Source: Trichoplax sp. H2
Lineage: Eukaryota
NCBI GenBank assembly: GCA_003344405.1
Contig: NOWV01000109.1
Coordinates: 186,001 to 250,000 of the forward strand
Length of the DNA: 64,000 nt
Direction: 5' to 3'
Shown here: piece by piece, positions 2,180-41,300 of the stretch
Layout: each line of letters opens with the position of its first letter
Position numbering within the stretch: position 1 is the first letter of the stretch
Made by a program: the position numbers and the translations under genes
Notes under the pieces: model-generated
Told to the model about the DNA's origin: nothing
Seen by the model: the letters and a program-made list of their open reading frames with translations, nothing else
Databases searched by the model: none

Positions 2180-3250
2180 AATAGCTTTTAGGTTAAATGT
2201 TAAATCTAACCGCAAACTTCAACTTGGCACTTAAGAAACATAAAGTCTAATGTACAGCCCATTAGCTAGAATGTTTATGTATTAGGGGAAGGATATTTGT
2301 AATTAAAAGATTATTAACTAATAATTCGTGGCCAGTCTAGCTTACGTATATTACTGACAAAATAATACTACAATTTTATGAATACTTGCATGAAGAAAGG
2401 AAATTAAGGAAATTAAAATCCTTCACCAAGACGAGCCTTTAACCTGTACGTATAGCTATTAGGTTAGGCATGAAGTCTAACTGCAGACTTTAATCCAAGA
2501 TGGAAAAAACAAGTTCTGAATATAAATAAGGGGAAAGGTATTTGTAAAGGATTATTAACTAACGATTCGTAGCATATCCAGCTTGTCTATATCACTGAGA
2601 AAAATGATACACTATAATTTTGCTAATATCTGCTTAAAGAAAGTGAATTAAGGAAATTACGGTCCTTCACTAAAGGGGGAATTTAGTCTGTACTCTATAG
2701 CTATTAGATTGGACACAAAGTCTAACTACAGACTTTAACCCTACACAGAAGAAATAAATTCTGATAGTACAACGTGGACTAGTACGCATATAAACAAGGA
2801 GAAGGTTAAAGATTTATTTATTAACGAATTGAAGAATATCCAGTTTATATATAAACGTGAGAAAAAAATAGGTTATCAAAGCTTTAGGAGTATAATATTT
2901 CACAAATCTCAATGAATCTACTCTTGATAAAAACGAAACTAAAGAATGTTTTTTAGTAATTTACAGATGCAAAGGTTGAAACTATACCATGTACTGTAGT
3001 AATTAGGTTGAACATTGGATCTAACTGCAAACTATAAGCCAATAAAGAAAAAATAAACTCTGACCGTACTGTATTAACTAGCATGTTTAATAACATTATT
3101 AATACATAAGGAGAAGGGCAACTATAAAGAATGGTTGGTTGGCAACTGAAAGTATGCTCAGTTTATGCATATTACTGAGATAAAAATAGACCACCAAAGC
3201 TTTGCGAGTATATTATTTCACAAATCAAAACTAATTCATGAGTGAAAGAA
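2180..3250. repeat. Degenerate ~250-300 bp tandem repeat, about 4 copies; related copies near 8420 and 8860
   Basis: Recurrent 'tagctattaggtt....a.g.tctaactgca.actttaa ... aagg.gaagg ... ccagctt.....at..ctgagaaaaa' at ~2181, 2452, 2698 and 2997. Confidence 0.75.
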
Positions 3251-4833
3251 GGAAATTCTGTGATTCGTATCACATTCTACGAAGTTGAATTCGCCGCGCT
3301 TAAATTATCATAAACATCACCTCTATGATATACCTATTATCGTCAACAGTCCTACATTTGGCATTATTTTCAAGTGATGTTTAATTTACTTCTACATAAT
3401 ATATTATCTTTTATCTTCTGAATTCTTAATTAAAAAATCGGAATGCATCATATTGTATATGTTACTAGACTAGTTAATGGTAATAAACTGAAGAGTTATA
3501 TCACTTTAAAGTATTCCAAAGGAAACCAACAATTAACCTCATATGTTACGAAAGATTTTGCCTACGATTCTCTAATAGTACTAAGTCGAGAGTAAAACTA
3601 TAACTTACCTCGGATCTTAGCTCTATAGGAGTCTGTTTAAAATCTTTGACTAATGCATACAAAATATAGCAAAACTAAGATAGGTTATCATCTATCAATT
3701 AGAATCCAAATAAAATAATCCGATTCACATTATACTTTACCAATGGAACCCACCCATGTTGTATTTGATGTACTGCATGTCTTGTACTTTTTGCTTGACA
3801 TCAATAGACAAAATGGCATAACTTTTAGTTTGATTTAGCTGCAGTATTGACTATCATTACAAGCCATTTAGTATAAATTTTATCATCATGATAAAATAAC
3901 ACAACTCTTACCCTAATTTAGCCATAAAATTGGCTATCATTAAAGCTATTTGCTATAAATTTTATCGTGATTGAAAATACATTACATTAACCAAGTACGA
4001 GCATATAGTTTAAGATTGCACTATATAATGTATCGTACTTGGTAAAGTTGATGACTATTTAATGATAATAAATGATAATCTGAATAAAGTCGTCGGATTT
4101 ACTACGCACGAGTATTTATTTGCTAAATAAAATCGAATGCCATCATCAAACAAATTTAGCCACTGTTACAAACGTTTACTGGTACCCTAAAGTCTACAAC
4201 ATACATGGAGCTTTGATAAACCTTCCCACTACAGTACACTTATTCTAATTTTCTCCTTACTAAAATAGATGCTATATACAATCACTTTTACAGGATAAAA
4301 TTGTTGAAGCACATTTGTAAACATCAGTCTCTAATACATATCAATCGAAGTATTAATTTCTGCTATCAAAATCATCCAACAAAAAGCTCTGTAATAATAT
4401 ATTGATTTTCTACTAAAAATCTCAGCATTGTTAGCAAATTGGTACTGAAATCATCATCTCTGACTTTATTAATTCTTATTATTATATTCTAAATATAAGT
4501 CTTATGCAGAAAATGTTAGCTCAATCATTGGATTGAACAGCTTTTTTAAGTTATTTCTTTAAAAATCTTCGTAGTAAGATAATAGACTGAGCTCAAAAAC
4601 GGATGACTAGAGAGGAAAACTTTTATTACCACATTTGATTTTATTGGCTTGGTTAGAAGGCCTTTAATTAAGTTAGTAGCTGGAATGGGTTACTCTGTAG
4701 GGTAAAAAAGTTCAAAACTTGTCATACACCAAAAGATAGATATGAAAATTACTTGAGATTCAAAAAATGAAGTAAAATTAACTATGACCCATGAGTAGCA
4801 AACCTTAATCGAATCGAGACATGATTATCTTAT

Positions 4834-5991
4834 TCAATTACCATCCGTCGGCTGATACTTTTCTACTGACAGCCAATAGTCTTTCATGGCAGCTATACAT
4901 TCGTAAACATTTTTTTCTACTTCTATTGCTGGCATCGAATAGAATGAACCTTGATAACACTTTTGATATAACTTTCGAATTTGTTCTTTTAACTTTTCAT
5001 CATCATATCGATACTTTTTCAGCTGTTTCAACTGTTTTTTACACCAAATAGAGAGTATTGCAGAGCTATCAGCCCATATATCATTATTATATATAATATC
5101 TAATTTTCTTTCGGGAAATGGATCTGTTTTATTGAAACTTCTGTATTCTAACTGTATCAAATATGGATATAAACGATGAATACTCGACCTAAATTCAATA
5201 TTATGACCACTATCAATAAAATAATCTTTTAACAAATTACTTGTCACACTAAGATTTCCCATACAATAATGCGCTTGGCGTTCTATTTCTACTTGCATTG
5301 GAAGGACTAATTCATATTCTATTTTATCATTTTTGATCATGCCTTGGCAAAGTGCGGTACCATTTTTGTTGTGCCTTACATTATAGCATGGGTCGCCTTT
5401 GGAGTTTTTAATATGACTGCAATTATCTCGTAGATATTGCTTAGCGGAACGTGGATCAAGTGTACCCCTATAATAATTGGGGTTAGTAATGACATCAATA
5501 GTGATATCTTGCTCCTTAAAATTGGGGTTTTTCCTTTTGATTTCTTCTAGTCTATCGGCTATAAAACTTGAATGACTAAATAGATCTACATGTGCGAGTA
5601 ATAGGCTAACAACTGGATGTGATTGACCGTCTTTTCCAATAATTGTCTTTCTATAGCCAATAACTACTGCAGCACATCTTGTTATACCAGCAGTTGCTAC
5701 GCTAATTTGGTTTACATTATCCATATTGAAATGAATTATCCCTGTCTCATTCACGGTGACGAGAACCATCTTCTTAGTAAATCCTTGTGGAATATCATTA
5801 TGATTTAGATTGCTTATTCCTTGGCTTAAATTATCTTGCCATGATAAGTCTTGTGATTCTAATGTTTCTGATTCTCTCTCGTGGCTAATGATATCCTGAC
5901 CTCTTCTATTGATGGGAAATTTTACTTTTTCCTCCTCTCTCATAGGTAATTCTATTGAACTCGTACTTCCTTTTAGTTCACTTGCCATCAT
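4834..5991 (-). CDS. Single-coding-exon 385-aa protein, putative Cys-His deamidase/amidohydrolase of the CheD/NTAN1/CNF1-like fold (paralog A)
   Basis: Uninterrupted 385-aa ORF in an intron-dense genome. Motif MVLVTVNETGII...ISVATAGITRC(106)AAVVIG...SLLLAH(134)VD follows the V.Q.E...T.G...C.avv...lAHvD layout I recall for CheD/NTAN1-like enzymes. Full-length paralog at 10050-11192. Confidence 0.8.
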   Translation of the reverse strand: MMASELKGSTSSIELPMREEEKVKFPINRRGQDIISHERESETLESQDLSWQDNLSQGISNLNHNDIPQGFTKKMVLVTVNETGIIHFNMDNVNQISVATAGITRCAAVVIGYRKTIIGKDGQSHPVVSLLLAHVDLFSHSSFIADRLEEIKRKNPNFKEQDITIDVITNPNYYRGTLDPRSAKQYLRDNCSHIKNSKGDPCYNVRHNKNGTALCQGMIKNDKIEYELVLPMQVEIERQAHYCMGNLSVTSNLLKDYFIDSGHNIEFRSSIHRLYPYLIQLEYRSFNKTDPFPERKLDIIYNNDIWADSSAILSIWCKKQLKQLKKYRYDDEKLKEQIRKLYQKCYQGSFYSMPAIEVEKNVYECIAAMKDYWLSVEKYQPTDGN

Positions 5992-8900
5992 TAAAGATTG
6001 TGGTACTGCTTGATTTGTAGGTATTATTAATGCCTTCTTTTATAGCTCTTTAGGAATGCTGTGTACTATTGCTAAGCATACCATCAACAAAGATGTAATA
6101 GTAATCCAGTAGCGATGACATTTTTTTGTGATAGGAGAGTAGGATAAGAAAGCGACTAAACAAGAAAGGCAATAGTCAAATATTTTACATTGTACGTTTG
6201 CACTGCCGTAAACTGTTGGATTGGGAGCAAAATTATTATCTAACTAAATCAACAACTTTTTCTAAGGCTTTTCTAATATCGGTATCAGGTTAGAATAGAG
6301 CTGGAAGTAGTGTCTTGTATCAACATTGGATGCGATTTAATAAATATCTATTTTTTCAAAATTTGGATTGATATGATTACGACAGAATACAAACTCTGTA
6401 CGAATACAGTGAAAATAGAAGGATAGAAATATTGTAGTCAATAAATAAAAAGGAGTAAGTCAATAGCAATCTAGTCTAAGCTGCCTAATAACAACGTATG
6501 ATAATTGAGAGAGACAGAGGAAAAGAAAATATGTATCATTAAACAAGTTCATACTAACGTTATCCAATGACATAATGTGCTCTATATGAAGAAAAGCAAA
6601 ATAAAGCAGAAAATGCAAATACATCGTAGTTATAAGATCTGATACAAACCTTACTCATTCCTTGAATTTCGTTATTTATCCACTAGAGTATATAGACTAG
6701 GTAAAATGAATTAGTTATAAGCAAGACCAAGAATCATGTAAACTATGTTCGAAATCAATCACTGTAGTATAGAAATAGCAACTTACCTCGTACGAACAAA
6801 AGTTTGTGTACTTTCTAGCTGTAAGTTTTGAAATTGGTATGATTACAGGGTAAAAGAATATACGACAAGGTAGCCCATTGCGGAAAGTAAAAAGTGCGAA
6901 AATAAAAAAATATAAATGCATGGGTAATCTTAGCTTGTATTTATTAGTAGATTAGCTTTTGTATTTTCTTGCATATTTTATCATCCTATCCACATTATGC
7001 ATGTATTACCAACCAATATGATAGATGTATGTCTCTCTATAAAAAATTAATAATTGATTTAGTGATGGACAAAGTCATTATTAAAATATAAAGATAAACA
7101 AATATACAAATACATAATAAAATACGAAAACCTCCTCAAAGTAGATCCAGCATGATAACGATGATATTTCAAAGCTTCTATCTGCAAGTTATTTACTTAC
7201 CTGTAGTTTTAGGTTTTTTATAGCTCATTAAAAACTATAGTAAACGCTCGTCAATCAATTCGATAGGTATGCCTAAGAAGTTTTTAAATGTTATCAATCA
7301 ACAAGCTAACGATAGAAATAAGTGAAGAAGAAAAAGTTACCATTAGCTCTACTATTCTACGTTTGAACGTAGGGATAGGGAAGAATAACTCGAATGGCAT
7401 TATGCGTGGCATTGATAAAAGGTCTGCTTACATAGGGAGTTCTGCTCTAATTTATGTCAACATACTTTCAGTAAATATTAATTAGACGCTTTCAGATCAG
7501 TAATACAGAGTTTCTAGTTTTACTGTGAAAAAAGATACTGTAAGATGAATAAGATTAGGTTCTTCTCCTGTATTAAAATACGATTTAAACTCTAGAATGA
7601 TTGGCTAAAAAGTACTGCAATTTTGGTTGACTACTTTTATAAGTTAAACTACGACATAATTGCTTACGACCTAATTATAAATTGTAATTCTTATTTGTTG
7701 GTCAAACTGCCTGCAAATGAATCAGTACTTTCTAAAAGTATTGGTGTAAGATTTCCAAAATGATCATGATCTTTCCTATCAAGCCAAGTACAATTTTTCA
7801 TGATATTCACATTCTGATTGAAAGGCATTATTGAGAGCAATGGAACGAAAGGGCTACTGTCAGATAATTCCTCCGATATTGCTAACCAAAAAAAATTTGC
7901 ACACGTCTATCATGTCTGAACTAAGTTGCAGCAATTTCTAGCATTCTTACCATAGCCATCCGCCAGTATGGCATACTTTAAAGATATCAAGCTTAACTGT
8001 ACTATATTGCCCAGAAAAAAAAATTAATTACGATAGTTTAACCAGGACATTTTTATACCAATTCTACGTAAATTCATGGATGAAAAGTTACCATAATGAA
8101 TATTTGATTAATTCATACATGCAATGCTTTCAACTATAGCTATTAGAGTGTTTACTCAATACAATAGAAACAAGATGCTGATAATGTAGTAAATTAACTA
8201 ATATGTCTGCAAATTAGAGAAGGATAATTGTAAAAAATAATTAGTTGCCAATTCAAAGGGTGTCCAGCTTACATACCGGTACCGTTTATCATGCGATAGG
8301 ATAGATACCCATATTTTACAAGGATAAATGTGAATTTCACAGGTTGCAACTAATTAAGAATATTTATATCGATATTTGAGTAATTCATAAAAGTAAGGCT
8401 CCAAGTTCAGTGTAATATAGCTATTAGGTTTGGATAACACGTCATCTATAAACTTTACCTCGACAGTCAGCACTGAAAAACGAAAACGCTGTTAGGTATC
8501 GTCTATGAACCAACACGTATACAAGCGAGAAGGAGGATAATTATAAAGATATAATAGTTTCTCATTTAACGCATTGTCTAGCTTATATCCATGAGAAGAA
8601 ATAACAGATCCTACGACTTTACCACTGCATTAATTTATTCGACAAATCAACACATGATGAAGAATGATTCACAAGTGATTTAAAGCACGTCCAGCTTATA
8701 TATATATCGCTGAGAAAAATAGACCATCAAAGCTTTACGAGTATATTCATTATTTATTTTATAAATTTCCACAAATCCATCTTAATGATTGATATAAAAA
8801 GAAACTAAAGGATACTTAAGTAATCCATGTAGACTAAGATTAAAACTGCACGATTTAGTTGTAAGGTTAAACATTAGGCCTGACTGCAACTTATAACACG

Positions 8901-10049
8901 ATATAAAACACAAAATCTAATCGTAATGTATAATATTAACTACTCGTAACATGTTTAATCAACATTGCTCATAAATAAGGAGAAGAGTATTTATGAAGAA
9001 TGATTTGTTAGCCATTCAAAGTACATCTAGATAACGTATATTTCTGAGTAAAAAATAGCCCGCCAAAGCTTACGAGTATATCATTTCATCAAACAGAATT
9101 AATCCATGAGTGAAGGAAGGAAATTTTATGATTCGTATCGCATTTTAGCAAGCTAAAATCAATACGCTTACATTATCATAAGTGTTACTTATACTTAGCA
9201 AAATAATGACTCTTTAATAATGATAACCTAGATAAAGTCATCGAGTTTACTACATACGAAAGTTTACATGCTAAGTAAAATCGACGGTTATCATCAAGCA
9301 AGTTTAGTTACTGTTACAAACATTTATATCACTTAGCAAAAATGATAGTTATCTAATAATGATAAATTATAACCTGCATAGAGTCATCGGGTCTACTACA
9401 TATGATTTACTGAATAAAATCATTAAACAAGTTTAGTCACTGCTACATACGCGTACATTTACGCCATAACACACATGCTGCAATTTCTACATACTAACAT
9501 TTCTAAATCTACATGTAATCATTTTTACAGATAAAATTACTGAAGAATAGATAATTCTAAATATTATTCTCCAATGCATATCGATCGAAGTATTCATCAC
9601 TACTATCAAAATGATCCAACAAAAACGCTCTATACTAGTATACTGATATTCTGCTAGATATTCTAGGGATAGTCAAAATTTTGAACTAGCAGAATGCATC
9701 CGAACTAGCAAATTAGTTCAGAAATCATTATGTCAGACTTTATTACTTCTACCTATTATACTAAGTACAAGTCTCACCCAGAATATCATGGCTATGTGAT
9801 TAAATTAGACGACTTGTTAAGTCATTTGATAAGGTAGATCAATTATTATTACCACATTTAATTCTACTGGCTTGGTTAGAAAGGCGTTTCAGTTACCTAC
9901 TGGAGTAGTTACTCTGCAGGAAAATCAATAGTTCAAAAAAATTTTTTAATATATAGAAATGGAAAGAACTTGAGATTCAAAAATGAAGTAAAATTAATTA
10001 TGACATACAAGTAGCAAAATTAATCGTAATTAAGACTAGATTATCTTAT

Positions 10050-11192
10050 TCACTGACCATCCTGCGCCAGATATAATTCTAGTGACCGCCAATAACTCAT
10101 TATTGCATCTATACATTCGCGAACATTTTGTTCTTGTGCTATTGGCGGCATCAAATATAATGAACGGCGGTAACATTTTTGATGTAAGTTTCGAACCTTA
10201 TCTTTCAACGTTTTATCATCATGTTGGAATTTTTTCAGCTGTTTCAATTCTTTTTTACACCAACTAGATAGTTTTGCCGAGCTTTCAGCCCATGCATCAT
10301 TGCTATATATAATATCTAGTTTTCGTCCGGTGTATGGGTCTGTTTTATTCCAATTTCTGTACTCCAAATGTACTAAATAGGAATTGACCTGATGAATACT
10401 TTCTCTTAATTGAACCTTACGACCAGCCTCAATAAAATAATCTTTTAATAAATTACTAGCACTATTACAGTTTCCCGTACAATAATTCAGTTGATGCAAC
10501 ACCTCTTCTTCTTTTGGAGTCATTAACTTGTACACTATTTTATCATTTTGGATCATACCTTGACAAAGTACGGTGCCATTTTTGCTGTGTCTTATGTCAT
10601 AGCATGGTTTGCCTTTGGAATTTTGGATATGACTGCAATTATCTTGTAGATATTCTTCAATTGGAGGTGCAATATAAAAATTGGGATTATTAATGACATC
10701 AATAGTGATATCTTGCTCCTTAAAATGGGGATTTTCTCTTTTGATTTGTTCTAGTCTATCGGTGATAAAACTTAAATGACTATATGTATCAACATGTGCG
10801 AGCAATAGGCTACCGACGGGATGTGATTGGCCATCTTTTCCAATCTTTCTATTTTTATAGCCAATAACTACTGCAACACAAGTAACTATGCCACCAGTTG
10901 CTATGCTAATTTGGTGTATATTATCCGTATTGAAATTAATTATCCCAGCCTCATTTTGAACGATAACAACCATCTTCTTAGTGAATCCTTGTGGAATGTC
11001 ATCATGAGTTATATTGCTTATCCCTTGACACAAATTATCCTCCCATGATGAGTCCTGTGATTCTGATGTTTCTGATACTCTCTCATGTCTGATGATATTT
11101 TGATCTGTTCTCTCGATAGGCAATGTTACTTTTTGCTCCTCTTTTGTCGGTATTTCTGTTTGACTTGTACTTACATTTTGTTGACTTGCCAT
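10050..11192 (-). CDS. Single-coding-exon ~380-aa protein, putative Cys-His deamidase (paralog B)
   Basis: ORF track 10050..11282 starts at TTG; the first ATG (MASQQ, 11192) aligns with the start of paralog A. Motif VVIVQNEAGII...ISIATGGIVTCVAVVIG...SLLLAHVD. Colinear with paralog A, roughly 60% identity by eye, one short indel after NPNFY. Confidence 0.8.
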   Translation of the reverse strand: MASQQNVSTSQTEIPTKEEQKVTLPIERTDQNIIRHERVSETSESQDSSWEDNLCQGISNITHDDIPQGFTKKMVVIVQNEAGIINFNTDNIHQISIATGGIVTCVAVVIGYKNRKIGKDGQSHPVGSLLLAHVDTYSHLSFITDRLEQIKRENPHFKEQDITIDVINNPNFYIAPPIEEYLQDNCSHIQNSKGKPCYDIRHSKNGTVLCQGMIQNDKIVYKLMTPKEEEVLHQLNYCTGNCNSASNLLKDYFIEAGRKVQLRESIHQVNSYLVHLEYRNWNKTDPYTGRKLDIIYSNDAWAESSAKLSSWCKKELKQLKKFQHDDKTLKDKVRNLHQKCYRRSLYLMPPIAQEQNVRECIDAIMSYWRSLELYLAQDGQ

Positions 11193-11225
11193 CGTTAATG
11201 ACTGTTCCCCTTTTGATTTATAGAT

Positions 11226-11796
11226 ATTATTAACGCCTTCTTTTATAGCTCCTTGGCAATTCTGAGCACTATTGCTAAGCAATACAATGGATAAATATAT
11301 AATAGCAATTCAACGGCGATAAAATTTTGTGGGATAGGAGAGTAGGATAAGTATCTAATCAACAAACAATAACTACGACCCTTGACTGTACTGTAGTTCG
11401 ACCTGTTACTTTTATTCTTAATTCGCTGTACTCTACTTCGCTTCTACTTTTTCTGATCCGTAACTTACGAAACTTCTAGCACTGACCGACTGACTACTTA
11501 ACGGACTTCCGCTATTATTAACGCCTTCTTTTATAGGTCCTTGGCAATTTTGTGCTCTATTGCTAAGTAATACAATGGATAAATTATATAATAACAATTC
11601 AGCGGCGATAGAATTTGGGGGGATAGGAGAGTAGGATAAGTATCTAACCAAAAAAACAATAACTACGACCCTTGATTGTAGTTTGATCTGTTACTTTTAT
11701 TCTTAATTCATTGCACTCTACTTTACTTCTACTTTTACGGATCCGCACTTACGAAACTTCTAACTCTGACCGACTGACTACTTAACGGACTTCCGC
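11226..11796. repeat. ~285 bp direct tandem duplication covering the 5' leader of paralog B
   Basis: 11226-11512 and 11513-11796 are near-identical (attattaacgccttcttttatag...gaccgactgactacttaacggacttccgc). Confidence 0.9.
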
Positions 11797-12589
11797 ATAA
11801 TGCTAAATATACAGTTATATGTATCGCGTGATTCGCGTCCAGTAACGCATATGACTTATTCGATATCAGTTTCTTAACGGACTGAGTTGACAACATTCTA
11901 TCTTCAAATAGTATACTAACATATGCGAATATATATAGAATCACAACAAGCCGGTTAGAGTAGAGCTGTGAGAAGTTGTGTCTCTCTATATTAAGATTTT
12001 ACGTATATTTCATAAGTTGGATCTAAATTATTACAAGTTCAACCTCTGTACAAATAGAGTCAACATAGAATATTAAACTCTTCGACTGGACGTCTTTCAT
12101 TCTGAATAGGACTAAAGAGAATTAAAATGAGATTATGCGAAGCATTGATTAAGATTAGGAAAACTTCGGGGGTCTACTCTAATTTATGCCGATTTACTTC
12201 GGTGGATATTAATTAGATACTTTCACATCAATGCTACAGAGTTACTAGTTATGTTAAAAAAAGAGACACTGTAAGATGAGAAAATGAAGCTCTTTCCCCG
12301 TATTAAAATACGGTGTAAACTGAAGAAGGATAGACCAAAAATGACTGTACCTTTAATTGACTAGTTTTATAAGTGATCACGATAACAGAATTCCTCATAG
12401 CCTAATTATAAATTGCAGTTCTCATTTACTTGTCAAACCACCTTAAAGTGGATCAATGTATTTTTTAGGAGCATCAATGTAAGACTCCCAAATGATAATA
12501 TTCCTTCCTATCCAGTCCAACACGATTTCTTTGTAATATTTACTCTCTGATACAACAATATTATTGAAGCAGAGGAATCAAAGAATGAA

Positions 12590-13130
12590 TCAAGACACTA
12601 TTTATTTCCAGCTTGAATTGCACGAGAAATGAATCCTGTCAAATATTTTATTGATTTCATTTCCTTCGTGCAAGACACCATTTATTTTCGACGGAACTCC
12701 CTATTCTTCGGATGGTCAGATACAGTCCGAAGAGTAAGGGATTCCTTTTCAACTTGAAGAATTGCACAAGAAATGAATCCAGCTAACCGTTCTATTGATT
12801 TCATTTCCTTCCTAATACCTAATTTTAACTTGAAGAACTGCACAAGAAATGAATTCTGCCAATATCTTTATTCATTTCATTTCCATCATGCTCAAGATAC
12901 TATTTACTTTAACTTGAAAACTGCACAAGAAAGAATTCTGCCAATCATTTTAATCACTTCATTTCCATCATGCTTAAGACACTATTTATTGTAACCTGAA
13001 AATTGCATGTGAAATGAATTCTGCCAACAGTTGTTTTATTATTTCATTTCCATTATGCTTAAAATACTATTGCAACTTGAAAATGGCACAAGAAATGAAT
13101 CCTGCCAACCGTTTTATCAACTCCATTTCT
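12590..13130. repeat. Degenerate ~75-80 bp minisatellite, about 6 units
   Basis: Repeated 'aacttgaa.aa.tgcacaagaaatgaat.ctgccaa...ttcatttcc.tcatgct.aaga.actatt'. Confidence 0.85.
12693..12745. mobile_element. 53-bp hairpin (mini-MITE-like) insertion inside a minisatellite unit
   Basis: Arms ggaactccctattcttcgga and tccgaagagtaagggattcc (16/20 complementary) around a 13-nt loop. Flanked by ttttcgac (12685-12692) and ttttcaac (12746-12753); absent from sister repeat units. Confidence 0.5.
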
Positions 13131-13759
13131 ATCTAGTCAAAACTGACACCCGTGGCAAGTGGAAGAATTGAGCGTTAAATAATCTTCAGGATGAATTATT
13201 TCATATTTTCATTATTGTATTTAAATAAATATAATCACATTAGGTCATTTAGAATCAGAGCATCAATATTGAGCTATCTATACTTTACTAATTAAATATC
13301 CAACACACATACTGCATACTGTATATATAATCGACCAAGAGTATAGGATACTGGAGGAGAATGGATAGTCCTAGATTGATTTAACTACGGTATTGATCCG
13401 GCAACGAACTAATTTCTTGGTTCTGGACCACCGTATTAGCAATCAATCTACTAGTTACTCATGAGTTATCGATCTCGATAGACGAGTTAACGACATATGC
13501 AAAATATAAGTAATAAATGTACGATCATGACTATCTGGTTGATTTAAGGACATGTTGTAAGGCCTATTGAGTTGCATTCTGTCGACAGCCAAGTAGCCTC
13601 GAAAGGAAGAAAGGATAACATTTTCTATCGTCCACTGAACGTGGATTCCAAGGGGCTAAAATTAAAATAAAAAACTCCGTCAGTTCATAGCTGTAAGCCT
13701 TTGCTCTACGCCGCTGGCATAACTAGTTTTATGGAAGATAGAACATTGTTTCATCTTAC

Positions 13760-16700
13760 CTTGCAATCATGACTGATTTGACAGTAATATTCAGATGGCA
13801 AGTTATACATTAATTCTCGCCAGTTATTTCCAATTTCAGTGAAATTTTTATTGGATTCAATGGCATAGCTCATATTATCATGGGTTAGTTTTCGAATTTT
13901 TCCCAAGAATGATTGACATTCTCGTTGGTTTCCAAATTTTCCTTCAGCAATCAAGCATATCATCAGTCTTGTTGTACACCATTCTTGACTTATATTATGG
14001 CAAGATTCGGGCAAATTTGTCGTTCTTTCCAAAGAGATATTAACAGGTTTGATGGTGACAGTAAGTTGATTATTTGCCTGTATACAATAGAGTTCAAGAA
14101 TAATTTATCACTATACTCATTTTTAGTCGTAGGCTTAAGTAAAATTGCTATATTTTACACCATCTTCACTATTCAACTTGGATTAATTATGTCGACTTAC
14201 CAAGTCTATGTTATAAGAACGTTCCAGATTAAAAAAAATGAATCAAGATTTAGATTGTGTGTAAACTTGATCTATACTTTATTTAGAGAAATAGGAATAC
14301 AAATTCGTAACTACGCACCTATATTGCAATTTTGACCTCCCCATCCTTGTTTACATCTATCACAAAGCCATAAAATGCGATAGAGAAAATCAAATTAAAT
14401 AGGTAATGACATGGTAAGAGGAGAGCAATATTAATGGATTCCCTTCCACTTACAGGCATTCATTTGGCGTGTTGCAGTAGCCATGAGTGGCATGGCAACC
14501 TTTACGGCATACAGCTAAGAATCAACAGTATGCAATGACAATAAATAGCATGACTGGTAGAAGAATAAAATGGATTCACTATCGCTAAGAAATCAACAGT
14601 ATGCTATTACAATTAATAACATGACCGACAGAAGAATAAAATAAGCCTAACAGGGTTCTAGCTTCGAATAAAACTGAATGAAAGTTGGAAACATGGTGCT
14701 TATTTACCTTGATTACAGTAGGGCCCTGTCCAACCAAAATTGCATCTGAAATAGTATCGTTAGAACGGTTAACTAAATAGATGAAACTTCTATCTAATTT
14801 TCAAGATTATAGCAATTATTTTCTGCTACTGTATAAAGGATTTTCTGACTAAAGTATACAGCAGTATATGGCTAATCACTTCAGATATTTATTATATTGC
14901 AAGTACTGTCACAATTTTAATATTTGGACAATAATCAAGCATTTTCTGCTAAGCTACAGCTACATTTTTAACATAGCTTATGCTACGCTATAACAGAATA
15001 TGTGGACTATGCATACGTATGTTAAAGACATTATTTTACATTAATACGGAAAATTGAAAATGATTTACCTGCATTCAAAAGGTCTATGACAATAACCTTG
15101 GTAAGGACTACAGCCTCTGCGACAAATAGCTGATTAATATCGGATATAGTTTAATAAGTCAAGTTGTTGGCAATAATCTTACTCTTCTTATCTGCTTAAT
15201 TCTACTCCATGATGCAATGAAATTGGACGAGATGATTGAATTGTAGCCTAATATCTAATACTTACGGATAATACAATTTTTTCCAGACCAACCACGATGA
15301 CACCTGTAAACAGAACGATATTTTAAAATTTATTCTGCATTATAAACGATAAAAATATCATGACAAGAACAAATACTAAATCAAAACTAAAGTAATATGA
15401 TGAATAGCCATGAAAATAACGACCTGAAAATACATTGTATCCGCATTGATTTAAATTTCTCCTAGATTAGATGCCGGCTATGAATACTAACCTGCATTCG
15501 TTAGGTTGATTGCAATAACCATTTCGTGGATGGCAAGTTGGACTACAGATAGCTAAAATATAGTTTTTTGGGGATTAAAGTAAGTGATAATTACAACTTA
15601 CATTTACAAAACGAAATTAAACCTATTCATAACGATCATACGTATAGATGGAATGCAATGATATTTTATATATACTGTTTATCAAAGTTGTGAATCTGAT
15701 CCAATCTTAAATATTATTTTATATGGTATTTATATTAGATCAAGATAATTATGACTATGTTGGGTTTATTGTAAATTTAAGTAGAGTATAATCGCTTTTA
15801 ATCCTTTACTTATTACTCTAAATTCTTCGTCGTAACTGAATTTAAGAGAATACAATTTTGATATAAATTTGGATAATTTACTTTACTATTGAATAAAATT
15901 ACAAATTATCATATGGCATTTAAATATCACTGCTAAATGAATTCTTGATCAAAATTAAAGCAATTTTCTGTATAATTTCAATAATTTGCATATTATTCGA
16001 CTGAGATTGCCAATTTTTATATTGTGTTAAAATTTCGTTGCTAAATTAGTTCAAGAAACCGTATTGTCACGTAATTAAACAATAATTTACAAAGATTTTT
16101 AACCATACTAATTAATTTTCAATTGAATCATAAGGGAAACATAGGCCTATGTTTTATCAATTGATAAATAGGTATTTACCTTGATCACAAAGGTGTCCTT
16201 GCCAACCTAACTGACACCTATAAATAAATGAATACTAGCTATAATATCATTCCCAAGACAGTTAAACTAGGACTTTATATATCGCAAATGGACAGATATT
16301 AATATAACCTGGTTGTATATTTATTAGGAATTAAATGATAATTAAAATAATTGATGTTTATGTAATATAAACGAATCTAATTTAACTTACAAGCACTCAT
16401 TCGGCCCGTTGCAGTATCCATGCCTTAAGTTACATCCAGGTAAGCAAATTGCTAATATTAATAAAATCTCATTATTAGGATTGAGAAGATTCAGGATTAG
16501 GAGAAAAAATTTCCAATCTATACCAGGTAATTCGACTATAAATTATTTTATAGGACTAATTCTATTAAGCAAAACAAATTCAAGATATTCCTTTTAATTA
16601 ACTACAGCTGCCGTATTGCTAGCAGATAATAGCAGTTCACCTGCAATTGGAGAATTGCAATTCATTAATGTTAACAATATGAGTTACAATAATATTTACC

Positions 16701-19204
16701 TTGATTGCAATAAGGTCCACGCCAGCCATGACTACAAATTACATTAACATCATAAAAGAGTTTAGTATGACTTCCTTGTATATAGTGTGAACGGCGGCCA
16801 GGTTGCAATTGCGAAGAACCATACAGACGGTCAACATAATCATCCAGTGTAACGGCATCTTCATCAAACACGTTAACATACAGAAGTAATGGTTCCTTTG
16901 ATTGTAGAAGAAAATTTAAAGTTACTTCATCGCTAAAAGATTACCACAGCCTACTTATCCATACGAGCTTAAATATAATACAATAAACAACCTTCTAGTT
17001 CTAACATTCCATTAATTGTATTTATACATTGTTGGCCAATTATAACTCTAGAACAATTAAGTTCAAAGATTTAAATGCTACTGCAATCTTAATTAATCAG
17101 TACATGAAGGGTAGATTGACGTATTATCTTTCTTCTAAATTTGCTATCAAAATCTGATACTATAGATAGACTATGTCAACTATCCACCTAAATTTAATTT
17201 CATAATTAATATAATTAGCTCATTTAACCAAATATCTTATTTTGAAGCTAAAACTGGAAAGAATAGATCGTGTAATTAATATCACTATTGATATAGAATT
17301 GCAATTGAATCGCCATAACACATAGCAGATTCTGAATATATCTTGAGTCAACGAATGAATTATCTACTAACTCTATCTAACGTTAGACTTTAATAATGTG
17401 GAGAATAAACCTGATTTTAAAATAGCTGATGCGTTAACTATGTCATTCATTGCGTAATACGTTAATTAATAAACTGTATATATTTCGAATTCAAATTTTA
17501 CTACGTGCATTGGATAGTAATATAGCGTATCATACCGTTAGTTCTGTTAGAGTTAATTCAATCGATATCTTAGGATTGAAATAGAAGCTATCGGCGGCAT
17601 TCTTGTACTGGCCGTATGAGTGCTTGTAGTATCGGCAATTTAGATTTCTAGTTCCTAAGCAGAGGTTAAAACGATAATCGCACCCTCCACCAAACCAGCC
17701 ATCACAGTTTTTACGTTGAAAATTTTTACTACCAGGATTTTCATATCGTATTAATCGGACGATGACACGATGTCTTGGCATGACTGTAAAGGCATTATAC
17801 CCCTATAATAGAAACATCAAATGTAGCTCTTGAATATATTATATCTTAACGCGTAATGTGAAGCTCTATGATAATTATGATTGTCTTAATCGATGTGAGA
17901 AACGTTAAATTTATATTAGCGTATGTTGTTTCTTCTACATACGTATACTTCTGCAATAGTGACATCATTAAATGTCTTACCAGAATACAGATTACTAGCC
18001 ACTATTTTTATGGATATGATAAATATTGCACAAAAGATATAGGTGTGCACAGAAGTAGGATGAGAGGTTTAAATATCTTAAGCCATCGAATCCCATCCCC
18101 AAAGCGGATGCTATCGGAATTTTTAAAGATTTTATTAGAGGTATAAAGATCGAAATATCGGCATATAGACAGTATATAGGGGTATTCGACAATCTTTATG
18201 TTTTTAATCGGACTGTCAGACAGTAAAATCATTTACTTATATAATTCAGGATTCTTCTAGAATGAACAAGCATCGAGTCATTTTAAATTAGACATAAGAG
18301 CTACTGCGATTATGTCAAGATCATCACGATTCGATATTATTTATTAGTCGTGGTTTATAAAATACTACCTATAAGAATGATTATATCAATTTAATAAATA
18401 CTGTATATAATTCTAAACCTAAGATCAAAATAATGTATAATTTATGAGTATATTACGAAGGTATAAAGGGATAAATGCTGATTAATTCTAGATTTCATTG
18501 ACATAATTTTCGATATCAATAGTATTAAATTTACTCGTTTACTTAATAGCTATTAAGAAAGGTTACAGAAAGTCTAACTAATTTACTACTCACTCGCTCA
18601 CATTATTACATCATTGTAAGCGAGATATGACCAAACTTGACTTAATAAAATTACAAGATGCGTCAAAAGCATGACATAAAGTTTCGATATCAGTAGCGTT
18701 GGATTTACTCGTTTTACTTAATAGCTATAGAGGAGAGTTTCGAAATAGTCTACCTAATTAACTACTCATTCATTCACATTGTTACGTCGTTGTAAGCTAG
18801 ATACAACCAAGCTTGACTTCATAAAACTACAAAAGTGAGTTAATAGTATGCGATAAAGTTGTTAAAGTTTCCCTAACTTGAAGGCACTATTATTTAATAT
18901 TGGATGCTTTTTCAATTTGATTTCCTAATAAAAATATCAAGAACTTTTACAAGCCATGGAGGTGAAAAAATACCGTGACTTGCCCCGTTATTAAAAGTAG
19001 AAAATGACTGGTAGTCAGAGATAGAAATATCACAACGAAAATAATTGTAGTAATATTACTACTTCAAGTCAAACTTTGTACCAATGCAGTTAAGTCGAAC
19101 TAAAATCGGTTGAAAACTATGGAATTGCTTTAGAATCAGATTTTAATACTTACTTGACAAAATATAGCCATAAGCAATAAGATTATGTGAGTAGTTGATG
19201 CCAT
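13760..19204 (-). CDS. Delta/Notch-ligand-like protein: signal peptide, MNNL/C2 domain, truncated DSL, 4 EGF repeats; 3' end uncertain
   Basis: Exon 19154-19204 MASTTHIILLLMAIFCQ (signal peptide). Exon ~17536-17802 ...VRLIRYENPGSKNFQRKNCDGWFGGGCDYRFNLCL (MNNL-like). Exon ~16700-16897 ...FYDVNVICSHGWRGPYCNQ. Four EGF exon pairs: AICLPGCNLRHGYCNGPNEC/CQLGWQGHLCDQ, AICSPTCHPRNGYCNQPNEC/CHRGWSGKNC, AICRRGCSPYQGYCHRPFEC/CNFGWTGPYCNQ, AVCRKGCHATHGYCNTPNEC/CKQGWGGQNCNI. Splice phases are consistent down to 14319; the exons below that are tentative. Confidence 0.85.
18500..18832. repeat. ~160 bp direct repeat (2 copies) in intron 1 of the Delta-like gene
   Basis: 18500-18657 and 18672-18832 share 'tgacataa..ttcgatatca.tag...atttactcgttt..acttaatagctat...ttgtaagc.agata...ccaa.cttgactt.ataaaa.tacaa'. 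Confidence 0.85.
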
Positions 19205-28800: not shown

Positions 28801-31032
28801 TAGCTCCAAAGTCATAATTGTGGTAAAATTTAGCTTAATTTTAATCACTTTGGAACGTCAATAGAAAGTACATCGCTTGCACTCATTCGAATATTTCTGG
28901 TTTGATATATAAATAGGTTACTAAGATAGTTGCATTGCTTGGAGGGACAATTGGAATTAAGTTTATCTTAAATGTGATATTAGCCGTTAAAGATGATGTG
29001 AGTTAGATTAATATCGTTTAAGACTGTCAATTTCACATCATGTTAGCGAGAGCCTTATCTTAAGCTTTCAAAAATCTTACTGGCTATATGATTACATAAA
29101 AGCTATTTAGTAACGATAGTTTAACTTAATTCAGTATAAACTTACGAATTCTTTTGCTCTGCAATAATGGTTGATAGGCTCGTATAATTATTGATTCATG
29201 AGTATTTCGCTTCTTGCTTTAATTCTTAAATTTTTACTTTTTATAGGAACATATAGGTAATCTACTTCGCTCGAAGTTTTCAGATTATAAAAATTTTGAC
29301 ACGATGTTGTACACGTGTGCTGCAGAATTTGACTTCATGGCAATGGATGTAAGTTTTCGACGATTATAGACAACTATCAATTGAATACAATGTAACTATG
29401 TGTGTATGTACCACATTCGTTATAGATATACATAAAGCTGTCGAAGACTTTGGTTCTACCCTTGGCCTGTCTCTGTGTGATTATCATTACATTTCAGGTT
29501 TAATTCCTTTATCAACTACCTTTTTGAAAGCAGTAAAGGGGTCGGCTAATTTCACTTACCCGATTGCTAATAATTGGCTAGGTCATTATAAAACTCTATT
29601 ATTCAGTTTATAAGGAGAAGAGTAAAGATAGTAAACAAGATAGTAACGAAACTTTGGAAAGGTACAGGGCTGCAGTTAAGATGATCGTCGATATGCTTAC
29701 AATATGTATCGACTGTCTCATATGTTTAGATTCTACTTTACGCTTCTTGACATTACCCAACCTATCTAATGTTGAATGAATATTCATGTAACTCCATTTT
29801 TAGTAATTTCATGGAATCAGAGTCACATATTGTATACCATGTCGTCCAAGCAGCAGCTTTTTGCATCATGGCTACACTTATTATGCGATTGAAGCTCTTC
29901 TTTACTCCACAGCTTTGCTTACTGACTTCTTTAATAGCTTCAGAAAAGGTAAATTATTTCTAGCTATAATAGATTACTTTCTAAATTATATTGTGGTATG
30001 ATTCTATTCTGATTTTCTTTTTGGTGTGTCAGATTGGAAAAGTTCTTAAAGGCTATTCAAGAGTTAGCGCTGTTTTTGTCATTATTGGGCTCATGTCTAT
30101 TCAGGGTTATGCAAACCTTAAGGAGCAAATAGTATGTTCATAATCAGTTATTTAAGTGGTAAATCATCGCATATCTGAAATGACGTAATTTTAGGATCTT
30201 ACCTTTTCATCTTTCTTGAATGATAGAATACAAATGGTGAATACTCAAATGTACCAATGGAAGAACTTGTAGGTTGCTAATTGTAGCTATTCCTGATGAA
30301 CTATGATTGTAATGAAATTTAAGTGGACATGATGATCTTAATATTTCCTTTTGTAAACTAGATGGAGTGGATCCAGAGTAGGACACCACGTGGTAATTAT
30401 TCAAAACTATGGCTAGGCAAAATCTAGCTTTACTAGTGCAAATTACGTAGCGAAGAGCAATAGTGAATATTTATATGCCTTTATTTTAGATGCTGCCTTT
30501 GCAGGCACGATGGGAACTATGGCTACAGTCAAGTTATGTACCGGTCGGCCGATAGTTAATCATCCTCACTATGAACATGAAGGTCTAAGGTAGGCTATGT
30601 AGCAAGGCATAATTCATTAAATTATTTTAAGTAACGGTAAGAAACTTAACGTACTTATGCAACTTATTCCGCCAATTATTTGAACAATAGGAATCGTACC
30701 AAGCTTGTTTACGAAATATATAGCAGAAAGTCGCCAAAGGTCGTTTATAAAACTTTGAAGAAATTAAAAATAAACTACGTAATTATGGAACCAAGCCAGT
30801 GTCAACAACGCCCAAAGTAAGAATAATTAGCCTTCAATGCTCATGTTTCACTGTAAGTATAACGTTATATGATATGTCTTTATGAAGGGCTGGCTGTAGC
30901 ATACCTGAATTATACGATTTGCAAGATTTTCAAAATCGTGATAAATCTTCGACGTGCGATCAAATAATCAGAAATCCTAAACCTTTTACGCTGGTATTTA
31001 ATAACCATGGTTACTACGTTTACCAATTATGA
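25890..31032 (+). CDS. DPY19L: DPY19-like C-mannosyltransferase (multi-exon)
   Basis: Exons encode [97 protein letters not shown] and [12 protein letters not shown], all typical of DPY19. Start ATG 25890, stop TGA 31030-31032. Confidence 0.93.
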
Positions 31033-38395: not shown

Positions 38396-41300
38396 TTACT
38401 GCAAAACTAGTCCGATCTAGATAGAACAAAAAATATTACAATAGTCAGTTCAGAATAACAGTAACGCAATTAAACCAATCAACCCGAAACGTTGTAGTAA
38501 ATTTAATCGTGGATTATATCATACCTTTTCTGATTCCATAGCAGGACATCGATAATTATAGAAGTAATATTGTAAATTTCCATCTCCGATGCCAAATTTA
38601 AGATTTTCTAAGAATTGCTTATTTTCCATTAAATCCAATGCATTCATTACGTCAAAGTTTGCCTACCATATAAATATTACATTGATAAAAAGCAATTATA
38701 TTTTATACCTTTCGCTTTCAGAAATCTATCAATTACATGACTCTACGTTATCGTGCATCTTAGATTGTACATATAATACATTACATTTTTAGCAATAATT
38801 AGCGCGTCCTGTATTAAGTCCTGCAGAGGAGTCTTGGTGTGGAATGTGTAAAATAAATATGCCGCGGACAGCTGGTTATAAGTTGGGTTATTAATTATAC
38901 TTGATGGTAAAGAGTAATAACTAAACATATCGGTAATATCTCCTTCGCTATCCTAAGAAATTGATAATAAATTGTAAAAGTTATTTCAACGTACAAAAAT
39001 CGGTTATACCAGAATGCTTATACTAGTACAATTTGTCCACGCATCAAGTATATACCTCCACAACATAAGAAGTAACAACTCCTTCCACAGGTAAAAACCA
39101 ATGCTTAAATTCGTCCTAGTAAATTTTAACATAAATATTCATATTTACAGGCATTTCCTATGTAACTTAATTCCACTAAGAAATTAACATTTATCTAAGT
39201 TTTACCTCATTAAATACTGGAGCTAGTTGGAATCGAGAGAGATACTAGCAATAGAAATAACATTATAAATATTAAAAAATGTTTTTAATTAGTTGCTATA
39301 CTGAATGCCAAATATCCTATATGTACCTCATTTAACTTCTTACAAGCGACTGGGACATCCTTAGCTTGAATTAAACGTAACCCTGGAACTTTAGTCTCCT
39401 TTATAAACCCAATCAATAGATTCTTTTTAGAATTACATAAACAGACAATTGTTTTAGGCCAACGATAATATTCTCTAACCTGAGGTAGGCGATACAACTT
39501 AATTGTTCTCTGCATGGTCATATTGCGCCCCAATTGAGAGAACTTGATATCAATTAATTTCTTAGGATTTAAGGATCGATGCCAATACCTAACACATAGT
39601 AATAACAGGACAGGTTACCGTTTAAGCAGTACATTATCAAATATCTCCTTTTAACTTAAAATAACGAAAGAAAAAATCATAGATTATCGACCTGCACGTG
39701 GCGATAGGCTTTGGAATGACAATACCAGCAGTAAAAACTGCCTTGAAAATACCCTCTAAATGAACACGACGAGTAATTTCTTTTATAAGAACAGGAGCAA
39801 CACGCTTACTCCTCAGTTTCTTATGAACACATAAGAAATTAATTTCCACCAGTACTTCATTCCTACAGTAGACGCACAGTACATTAAATCTACGATACAT
39901 ATAGAATCCAAACGAAATCTGTCGAATGGACACTGCATATTGAATCATCTACGAGATTAATATTTAACATACAGATCATCATGAGCTCGCATATGAGCCG
40001 GAACACCGCTTATGAAAGAGACCAACTTGCGACTTGTTTCAACTCGGACACCACAGTGCCAATTTTTTTTATAGCCAGGTGGTTTCAAGGCCCTAGCGCA
40101 AACAAATGTTATTATTGTAAGTACGTATGCCATATTAAAGGATTCCGATTGCGAATATCCAAAAATTAATCAACACGTTCCTTATACACACATAATCATA
40201 AAGTATTAGTTATCTAATATTTAATATATCTATGATAATTACCATATCAGGAATTCAGGTGAGTAGTTAAATCTAAACATGTTGTCATCATCTTCAACAT
40301 AGTTACCAGATAACAATTCGTAGAGTTCCTTAAGCTAGTCGTGATAAAATAAACTTTTTAATACAATGACTGATGAAATGTACAGTATCATTCGATTGTT
40401 TAAAAAAATGTATGATTATAAATTCCTTCTTGATTTAGTTAAGCTATCAGCTTACTTGAGCGGCGTCTTCAAGGTCTAGAGTATCCCAAACAAATCCAGG
40501 GGGTAAGGAGTAAGAATTCTTGCGAACATCATCCTTATCTGCTTCAATTGCACCACATTGTGTTGGACTTTCATCTAGCAAATAGATAGTTACAGCAAGA
40601 AATAAATATCATCGATGCCAACAATTTGTAGGGAACTTGATAACAGATAAAAAAATTTTTTGATTCATTACTTTAAGAAAGTATTCTAATAAATGTCAAA
40701 TTTCAAATTTAAGTTTAACACAAGTTTTGCTAGTAAACGCCTGATGGTAACAGTAGCAGAAAAGGACAGCAGGATTGAATAATTACGTATTGCGCTACGT
40801 ATTGATAACTGATTCATTCATTAATATAGTGATACGATATGCGTGGATATACCTTTTTGAGGTAGTATAAGTAAAGACTAAAGTTTACTTGATAACAGTA
40901 AGTAGCAAAACTTGCAACTACGGATTGTTACGAAATGTCATCAAGACTGATCTTTATTATTTTCAATCTAAGGTAAATAAACTCAGTTAGATTGACTTAT
41001 GTTGAGTAGTAATCTAGTACATAACGTTTACCAATTAGGAATAGCTACTTCGTTTAAATACTATTCTATATACATAGTAAAGTAAACGATGATGATCAGC
41101 CATAGATAGTAAATTATTGATAAAGAAATGTATAGGTATGGTTAGAGTAATTTAACTGAATAGTAGTTCAGTGTATAGCTTTTACTTTTACTGTAGGTAT
41201 ACTGTTTTATCACTACTCATTTATAATGTAAAAGCTAGTAGTTCTAGTGCTTAATATGGTATTTAAGAGGGACTTTACTTTAGAGCATTTTACTAAGACG

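Follow-up and report, generated by a model that had tools for sequence, protein, structure and literature searches.

The 64,000-nucleotide stretch of Trichoplax sp. H2 analysed here (assembly GCA_003344405.1, contig NOWV01000109.1, positions 186,001 to 250,000 of the forward strand; hereafter the window, numbered from its first letter) carries a pair of genes, A and B, in which an earlier note made from the letters alone had seen two uninterrupted open reading frames (ORFs) of ~380 residues and had read them as deamidase genes of possibly foreign origin. Both frames were recovered on the minus strand: the coding sequence of paralog A (4834..5991; stop TGA 4834-4836) specifies 385 amino acids, and the ORF of paralog B (10050..11192; stop TGA 10050-10052 when unspliced) specifies 380 amino acids from its ATG. 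The two proteins share 63% identity over 383 aligned residues, and no third copy was found in the 64-kb window by tblastn. Protein A is recorded in NCBI nr and EukProt, and the protein collection lacks the exact product of the unspliced B ORF. The pair are host genes, native, transcribed and spliced, which arose long ago by tandem duplication and whose protein family has a very narrow distribution, and we consider it on balance probable, if only just, that these expressed genes encode a divergent Cys-His-Thr amidohydrolase domain resembling those of CheD and NTAN1.

Sequencing runs provided independent views of the locus. The stretch 4250-6150 was present in 20 of the 24 runs listed, representing seven studies, and 19 of them contained half or more of the words sampled from it. 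Contigs of four runs (X3, X16, X19 and X20) were compared with positions 2500-13500, and depth was scored in 30 bins over 11 kb. Run X3 was DNA-like, with depth in all 30 bins (mostly ~70-100) and overlapping contigs that span the locus together with its flanks on either side, and showed no splice-like joints. RNA-like behaviour was seen in X16 and X19, which come from two studies other than that of X3; their depth was limited to 20/30 and 17/30 bins, respectively, centred on A and B, and we treat them as RNA because of their spliced joints and patchy cover. Run X20, labelled RNA, yielded only three small contigs at the locus, two of which fall in gene A, and its depth in 3/30 bins was too sparse for use. 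At the joints of X16 and X19, the skipped parts end in CT..AC on the plus strand, equivalent to GT..AG on the gene strand, and the splice sites are good by sequence. Expression, which the earlier note had proposed to check, is supported by spliced RNA-like contigs in two runs from two studies.

The joints define the exon structure of both genes (minus strand throughout; a slash within a sequence marks an exon boundary). The large exon of A (4804..6155) comprises 164 nucleotides of 5' untranslated region (UTR), the coding sequence and 30 nucleotides of 3' UTR; its ends are set by the joints 6155/6650 and 4694/4804, and are flanked in the sequence by an acceptor ttag/t at 6156/6155 and a donor aag/gtttgc at 4804/4803. 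An in-frame TAA (6040-6042) lies upstream in the same exon, which fixes the start of A at its ATG, and because the 3' intron begins 30 nucleotides past the TGA and the 5' introns lie upstream of the TAA, the coding sequence falls wholly within this one exon. Downstream follow a 3' UTR intron of 109 nucleotides (4695..4803, GT..AG), whose joint occurs in both X16 and X19, and a 3' exon of UTR (4098..4694), known from an X19 contig in which 4098-4694 is joined to 4804-5278, its lower end being that of the contig only. The stretch covered by this 3' exon is conserved with the region downstream of B and contains AATAAA motifs. Upstream of the large exon, X16 alone carries the joints of two 5' UTR introns, one of 494 nucleotides (6156..6649, GT..AG; shorter side of the joint 47 letters) and one of 90 nucleotides (6697..6786, donor gag/gtaagt), between which lies a small non-coding 5' exon of 47 nucleotides (6650..6696).

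In gene B, the coding exon contributes 378 codons and one further base (10058..11192) and is followed by an intron of 144 nucleotides (9914..10057, donor g/gtcagt, acceptor cag/a), with its joint in contigs of both X16 and X19, that takes out the TGA and the two codons before it. Because the donor sits inside the penultimate codon, ahead of the ORF stop, the spliced product ends in ...LAQDE-TAA instead of the unspliced ...LAQDGQ-TGA, the last two bases of the final Glu codon and the TAA occupying 9909..9913, from which the 3' UTR runs on downstream; this altered C-terminus may be why the product of the B ORF is absent from the protein collection. Gene A therefore has at least four exons and gene B at least two, with the coding sequence essentially in one exon in each case, and the earlier description of the pair as intron-free has to be given up: GT-AG introns occur twice in the 5' UTR of A, once in its 3' UTR and once at the 3' end of B.

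Two further features of the transcribed region deserve mention in their own right. Paralog A keeps a possible donor, g/gtaatt, in its penultimate codon (4840-4842), at the site homologous to the donor of B; joined to the acceptor at 4695/4694 it would yield a ...D-E-stop ending like that of spliced B, and the contigs show only the donor at 4804/4803. A TATA-box-like sequence, GAGCTATAAAAGAAGGC, is conserved ~55 nucleotides upstream of both ATGs (in A at ~6031-6047, in B at the matching site before the ATG at 11192). In A, this copy is contained in the exon into which X16 transcripts are spliced at 6155, and those transcripts begin further upstream. GAGCTATAAAAGAAGGC may serve as an alternative, internal promoter or be no more than UTR sequence that has been conserved.

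Comparison of the window with itself by blastn placed A and B in a ~5-kb tandem duplication that takes in their flanks. Unit 1 (2826..7851) holds gene A and unit 2 (8677..12583) holds gene B, and four pairs of blocks relate them at 71-75% identity (2826-3313 with 8677-9181, 4036-4178 with 9192-9326, 4250-6148 with 9484-11351 and 7393-7851 with 12126-12583). Unit 2 also contains an internal tandem duplication of 288 bp directly upstream of gene B (11225-11512 and 11513-11796, 88.6% identical), which doubles a stretch with a TATAAAAG-like motif, and an unspliced X16 contig (10691-11482) crosses the first copy (11225-11512). Between the upstream block of gene B and the next transcript, short direct repeats are clustered at 12590-13133 (units of ~75-150 bp, 72-85% identical). 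To that next transcript belong the contigs of highest depth in X16, X19 and X20 (58, 186 and 43, respectively), which begin at 12939-13500 and beyond, just upstream of gene B; the ORF at 13754-14104 had no Pfam match.

Between A and B, the number of synonymous substitutions per synonymous site (dS) was 0.47 and the ratio of non-synonymous to synonymous rates (dN/dS) was 0.45, alike across three parts of the protein, values that we take, from the coding sequences, to mean that the duplication is old and was followed by purifying selection of moderate strength. No insertion or deletion was seen inside either ORF in the four runs compared; the single-base differences inside the ORFs numbered 11 among those listed, five synonymous and six non-synonymous, with 30 more differences across the 11 kb. 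That the pair might be contaminating or mobile DNA, whether bacterial, viral or transposon-borne, mis-assembled into a host contig has the long ORFs in its favour and nothing else. Against it stand the DNA-like run X3, which spans the locus and its flanks over 11 kb at similar depth, the 19 runs from seven studies that contain half or more of the words sampled from 4250-6150, the spliced transcripts, the lack of a match among viral contigs and a host-like composition, and we regard such an origin as extremely unlikely.

The proteins themselves probably consist of three parts, as judged from sequence and low-confidence models: a hydrophilic N-terminus of ~65 residues, disordered and acidic, an alpha/beta domain at ~66-240 and a helical C-terminal domain at ~240-385, the C-terminal helices being predicted at ~233-377 in an AlphaFold2 model of low confidence. 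In agreement with the earlier note, no hydrophobic N-terminal stretch that would mark a signal peptide was found, the highest Kyte-Doolittle value of any 12 residues within the first 50 amino acids being 0.12 in A and -0.35 in B. The motifs quoted in the same note, VxxxNExGII, TxGIxxCxAVVIG and LLAHVD, are likewise present in both paralogs, with Cys106 and His134 in A corresponding to Cys105 and His133 in B. The putative active-site segment of A (5590..5694, minus strand) runs from Thr100 (5692-5694) through Gly102 and Cys106 (5674-5676) and a 12-residue insertion bearing a second histidine, His125, to His134 (5590-5592), with Asp136 (5584-5586) beyond it. That of B (10794..10898, minus strand) holds Thr99, Cys105 (10878-10880) and His133 (10794-10796), and gives a sub-threshold match to the Pfam model of the NTAN1 family, PF14736.

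How isolated this family is emerged from an exhaustive HMMER search, with a profile of A and B at E <= 0.001, over 1.84 billion cluster representatives, which returned two proteins: the record of A itself and P0004, a protein of 651 amino acids (E 2.3e-13) and a singleton, which derives from a 2108-nucleotide contig in ENA. Word-seeded searches of a collection of 5.8 billion proteins (length ranges 211-674, 200-674 and 103-357 amino acids) brought no further relatives, and pattern scans checked by tblastn found none in contigs of JGI metagenomes (0/599 candidate stretches), GTDB genomes (0/64) or viruses (0/452). Pfam and NCBIfam gave noise only for full-length A and B, with no family covering the proteins, and sequence searches of the PDB with A, the B domain and two profiles returned chance-level rows only (E 0.35-3). 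A search for nearest homologues, which the earlier note had recommended with bacterial relatives in mind, thus yielded no bacterial relatives, and P0004 as the sole distant relative. Full-text searches on these deamidases and on horizontal transfer listed no paper dealing with a eukaryotic CheD/NTAN1-like family of this kind.

Although a single sequence, P0004 is informative on what the family conserves. Its identity to A is 25% across residues 3-278 of A, and it contains low-complexity linkers rich in Lys and Gln, which are eukaryote-like. Invariant positions in the alignment of A, B and P0004 include, in the numbering of A, Ala99, Thr100, Gly102, Cys106, Ala108, Val109, Ile111, Leu132, His134 and Asp136, so that P0004 keeps the pattern Thr-x5-Cys...His-x-Asp. 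The stretch of A from residue 99 to 111 is the best conserved, with 8/13 residues identical to P0004 against 25-27% overall. The distance from Thr to Cys is six residues in all three proteins, and that from Cys to His is 16 in P0004, which is without the 12-residue insertion, and 28 in A and B. At ~520-651 of P0004, a second linker is a repeat of the first one (score 67 in local alignment), and the last 37 residues, at which the contig ends, open a new module. The start of this second module is closer to A and B (local scores 61 and 76) than the first module is (35 for its equivalent segment), meaning that in that organism a single reading frame carries more than one copy of the module.

The spacing from Thr to Cys is that of a known class of enzymes. 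Passages of PMC7022378 give the triad of CheD as Thr21/Cys27/His44 and that of NTAN1 as Ser69/Cys75/His92, such that in both the Cys has a hydroxyl residue six positions ahead of it and the His 17 positions behind. Matches were present in 69 of 151 genomes, and 30 bacterial CheD sequences drawn from these, which we aligned ourselves, showed the corresponding pattern T-x5-C and C-x16-H. In the deamidase layout that the earlier note had proposed for A and B, it is the motif with this Thr-to-Cys spacing, along with weak fold signals, that stood up, and no test of the fold reached a conventional threshold.

Several lines of evidence nonetheless converge on a CheD/NTAN1/YfiH-like fold, each of them weak. 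The ESM Atlas holds its own model of A (predicted template-modelling score, pTM, 0.51), whose structure neighbours comprise a cluster with 36% of its members in N_Asn_amidohyd (template-modelling (TM) score by hit 0.54), two CheD clusters (0.60 and 0.50), two Cu-oxidase_4/YfiH clusters with 100% and 25% of members so named (0.47 and 0.40) and one unnamed cluster (0.51), all of them returned as under the bar at which a family may be named. Feature searches of the Atlas with A and with P0004 each list an N_Asn_amidohyd cluster (0.79 and 0.77, respectively, at lead level only). In Pfam, three overlapping fragments of the B domain match PF14736 at profile positions 9-91 (E 0.044, 0.022 and 0.011; 13.4, 14.3 and 15.3 bits); the matched stretch of protein is 13 residues longer than that of the profile, which fits the 12-residue insertion. 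This match is at noise level in absolute terms, and gains weight because the family is among the few predicted beforehand. In profile-profile alignment with hhalign, the family domain aligned with CheD over 133-137 columns (score 18.5-19.8, E 0.044-0.062), placing Cys106 on the catalytic Cys of CheD and the secondary elements that follow it (helix-strand-helix-strand) in the same order, and in local mode 4/150 column shuffles reached that score. As a positive control, CheD and YfiH, both accepted members of the fold, scored only 14.7 against one another, so weak hhalign scores are to be expected and the test is low in power. The Pfam models of CheD (PF03975) and YfiH (PF02578) matched neither the full proteins nor their fragments, with nothing for PF03975 even at E <= 10. 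The silence of PF03975 is uninformative on the motif, because this model of 108 positions begins after the catalytic His. It was seen to start right after that residue in the 30 bacterial CheD ORFs (loci L082-L111), the Thr/Cys/His segment lying outside it, a point to be borne in mind wherever PF03975 is used to seek CheD-like active sites.

A number of observations weigh against the amidohydrolase reading, and most of them also feed its chief rival, namely that A and B are a fast-evolving, lineage-restricted protein with a structural or regulatory role that is no hydrolase of this fold, the motif and the weak fold signals being coincidental. No fold test reaches a conventional threshold: all Atlas rows are under the naming bar, with TM scores by query of 0.25-0.32, and the PF14736 scores lie below the gathering cut-off of 24 bits and come from fragments of B only, with no match for full-length A, B or P0004 or for domain fragments of A or P0004. 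Similar noise-level matches link the proteins to unrelated Pfam families just as strongly (SCP2_Rv3818, E 0.027; L51_S25_CI-B8, 0.068-0.13; DUF4784_N, 0.087-0.21). The hhalign alignment put the His of CheD on His125 of the insertion rather than on His134, and the 28 residues from Cys to His in A and B replace the 17 of the known enzymes. In -glob mode 116/150 shuffles reached the real score against CheD, which leaves no signal, and neither was there any against 79 enterobacterial YfiH sequences (score 12.3, equal to the mean of the shuffles and reached by 34/60 of them). The AlphaFold2 models are poor, with a mean predicted local distance difference test (pLDDT) of 33.1 for the full protein with two sequences and 37.5 for the domain with three, and fold searches with the latter were uninformative, such that the structural check proposed in the earlier note was unusable as far as our own models go and, through the Atlas, gave NTAN1-like, CheD and YfiH neighbours below the naming bar. 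A dN/dS of 0.45 indicates only moderate constraint, the label 'RNA?' of X16 and X19 is a guessed one, and the contigs carry no information on expression level.

This rival draws further on there being only three known members of the family. It has to accommodate, however, that structure neighbours, language-model features and a Pfam hidden Markov model single out, among 24,736 Pfam models, the same few families, that these are the very families predicted by the motif spacing, and that the motif segment is the best-conserved part of A relative to P0004. We therefore hold a non-hydrolase to be possible but unlikely, and retain the reading of A and B as divergent CheD/NTAN1-like amidohydrolases, whose fold, catalysis and substrate class we infer from these comparisons.

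Among the known members of the fold, NTAN1 (PF14736; human structure 6A0E) offers close parallels. It is a eukaryotic cytosolic enzyme of CNF1/YfiH-like fold in which the spacing of Ser69 and Cys75 equals that of Thr100 and Cys106 in A, its His follows the Cys by 17 residues compared with 16 in P0004, and its core is followed by an additional C-terminal region, much as A and B have a sizeable C-terminal appendage. Its family is also the only Pfam family of this fold with any signal in our proteins, in B only and at 13-15 bits against a cut-off of 24. Bacterial members of PF14736 were sought in 301 genomes of Pseudomonadota; none exceeded the cut-off, one fragment reaching 20.6 bits. The suggestion in the earlier note that the motif stands closer to bacterial CheD than to NTAN1 is thus not upheld, this sub-threshold signal being the only one in Pfam. 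The motif there ascribed to NTAN1, GSDDATTC, differs from the ATxGxxxC of A and B, which also carry a 12-residue insertion between Cys and His.

A narrower version of the favoured reading would make A and B diverged duplicates of the host NTAN1, still acting as N-terminal Asn (or Gln) amidohydrolases that feed the N-degron pathway. The sub-threshold PF14736 matches cover the part of the profile aligned with the Thr/Cys/His segment of B, the top structure row of the Atlas and the feature rows of both A and P0004 name N_Asn_amidohyd clusters, and the C-terminal appendage after the core is in keeping with such descent. The match ends, however, at position 91 of the 270 in the profile, and A and P0004 have none; no Pfam match extends to the C-terminal region which, in the passages of PMC7022378 on the human enzyme, recognises the N-terminal Asn through Thr255, Glu260 and other residues. 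P0004 moreover has at least two modules per ORF, in contrast to the single-domain NTAN1 of those passages. Direct descent from NTAN1 with its substrate retained therefore seems to us quite unlikely.

CheD (PF03975; Thermotoga maritima structure 2F9Z) has a triad, Thr21/Cys27/His44, whose Thr-to-Cys spacing recurs in A and B. Neither of the CheD signatures, LGSC and GGMNH, occurs in these two proteins, which are more than twice as long as CheD and lie at a eukaryotic locus without chemotaxis context. According to PMC7022378, YfiH/PgeF (PF02578, Cu-oxidase_4) belongs to the same fold class and binds zinc at its active site, and the passages concerned describe the members other than YfiH as deamidases; the same source places in this class the deamidase domains of the toxins CNF1 and BLF1, which use a Cys-His pair to deamidate Gln in host proteins. 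Unlike them, A and B are host genes without a signal peptide, nothing suggests secretion or delivery, and none of our results speaks for the toxin, effector or defence role raised in the earlier note.

The surroundings of the pair are those of a eukaryotic genome. Neighbouring genes with Pfam matches are eukaryotic and split into short exons, as the earlier note had said of every other gene in the window, a statement that holds for these neighbours. They include exon fragments of NMT (39637-39948) and NMT_C (38746-38952), of Met_synt_B12 (44920-45267) and Pterin_bind (48449-48649), of Dpy19 (30417-30590) and of SWIB (62998-63168), and the exons of Dpy19, NMT, SWIB and B12-dependent methionine synthase, with the EukProt record of A, make it plausible that the genome is that of an animal, as had been assumed. 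Two ORF pieces at 16674-17802 on the minus strand (...NCDGWFGGGCDYRFNLCLG... and ...FYDVNVICSHGWRGPYCNQ...) are reminiscent of Notch ligands, in their N-terminal and DSL regions, a likeness that Pfam does not support: the second piece matched nothing at E <= 0.1 and the first had a chance-level match only. The GC content of A and B is 0.34-0.35 and their GC content at third codon positions (GC3) is 0.27-0.28, within the 0.27-0.36 of five neighbouring exons.

These data bear on the origin proposed in the earlier note, in which horizontal transfer, from a symbiont for instance, brought in a bacterial CheD-like or effector-like deamidase gene that was duplicated afterwards. Such an event would account for a single-exon coding sequence among finely split neighbours, and most of the Atlas neighbour clusters that bear a name come from bacteria or archaea. 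Yet the HMMER search of 1.84 billion representatives returned no prokaryotic homologue and none turned up in GTDB, JGI metagenome or viral contigs, GC and GC3 match those of the host exons, and spliceosomal introns lie in the UTRs. The sole Pfam signal of this fold is NTAN1, treated as a eukaryotic enzyme in the passages of PMC7022378 that deal with it. On this evidence a horizontal origin is not supported, and we judge it very unlikely. Because A and B have UTR introns, a long single-exon ORF amid finely split genes is, on its own, no sign of foreign origin.

Returning to A and B as native amidohydrolases, analogy with CheD and NTAN1 suggests how they might work. Cys106 would be the nucleophile, its thiolate attacking a carboxamide; His134, placed on the adjacent strand of a beta-hairpin, would activate Cys106, and Thr100 would orient His134. 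The side chain of Gln or Asn, or the carboxamide of an N-terminal Asn, would then be hydrolysed via a thioester intermediate with release of ammonia. In A and B, the 12-residue insertion would lengthen the hairpin, and the helical C-terminal domain may select the substrate as is done in NTAN1 by its added C-terminal region.

If the fold assignment holds, A and B represent a new family in a known superfamily. Going one step further, we tentatively suggest, as a possibility to which we would give clearly less than even weight, that A, B and the multi-module P0004 form a eukaryotic branch, not described before, within the CheD/NTAN1 superfamily of deamidases, one that has its own helical specificity domain and deamidates particular cellular or foreign proteins. 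Were this true, the pair would act either in defence or as a switch that works by protein deamidation and is specific to the lineage, separate from both chemotaxis and the N-degron amidase. With two paralogs and clear point mutants, A and B would make a tractable test case, and a second expressed eukaryotic family with the Thr-Cys-His arrangement would be a new candidate writer of protein deamidation.

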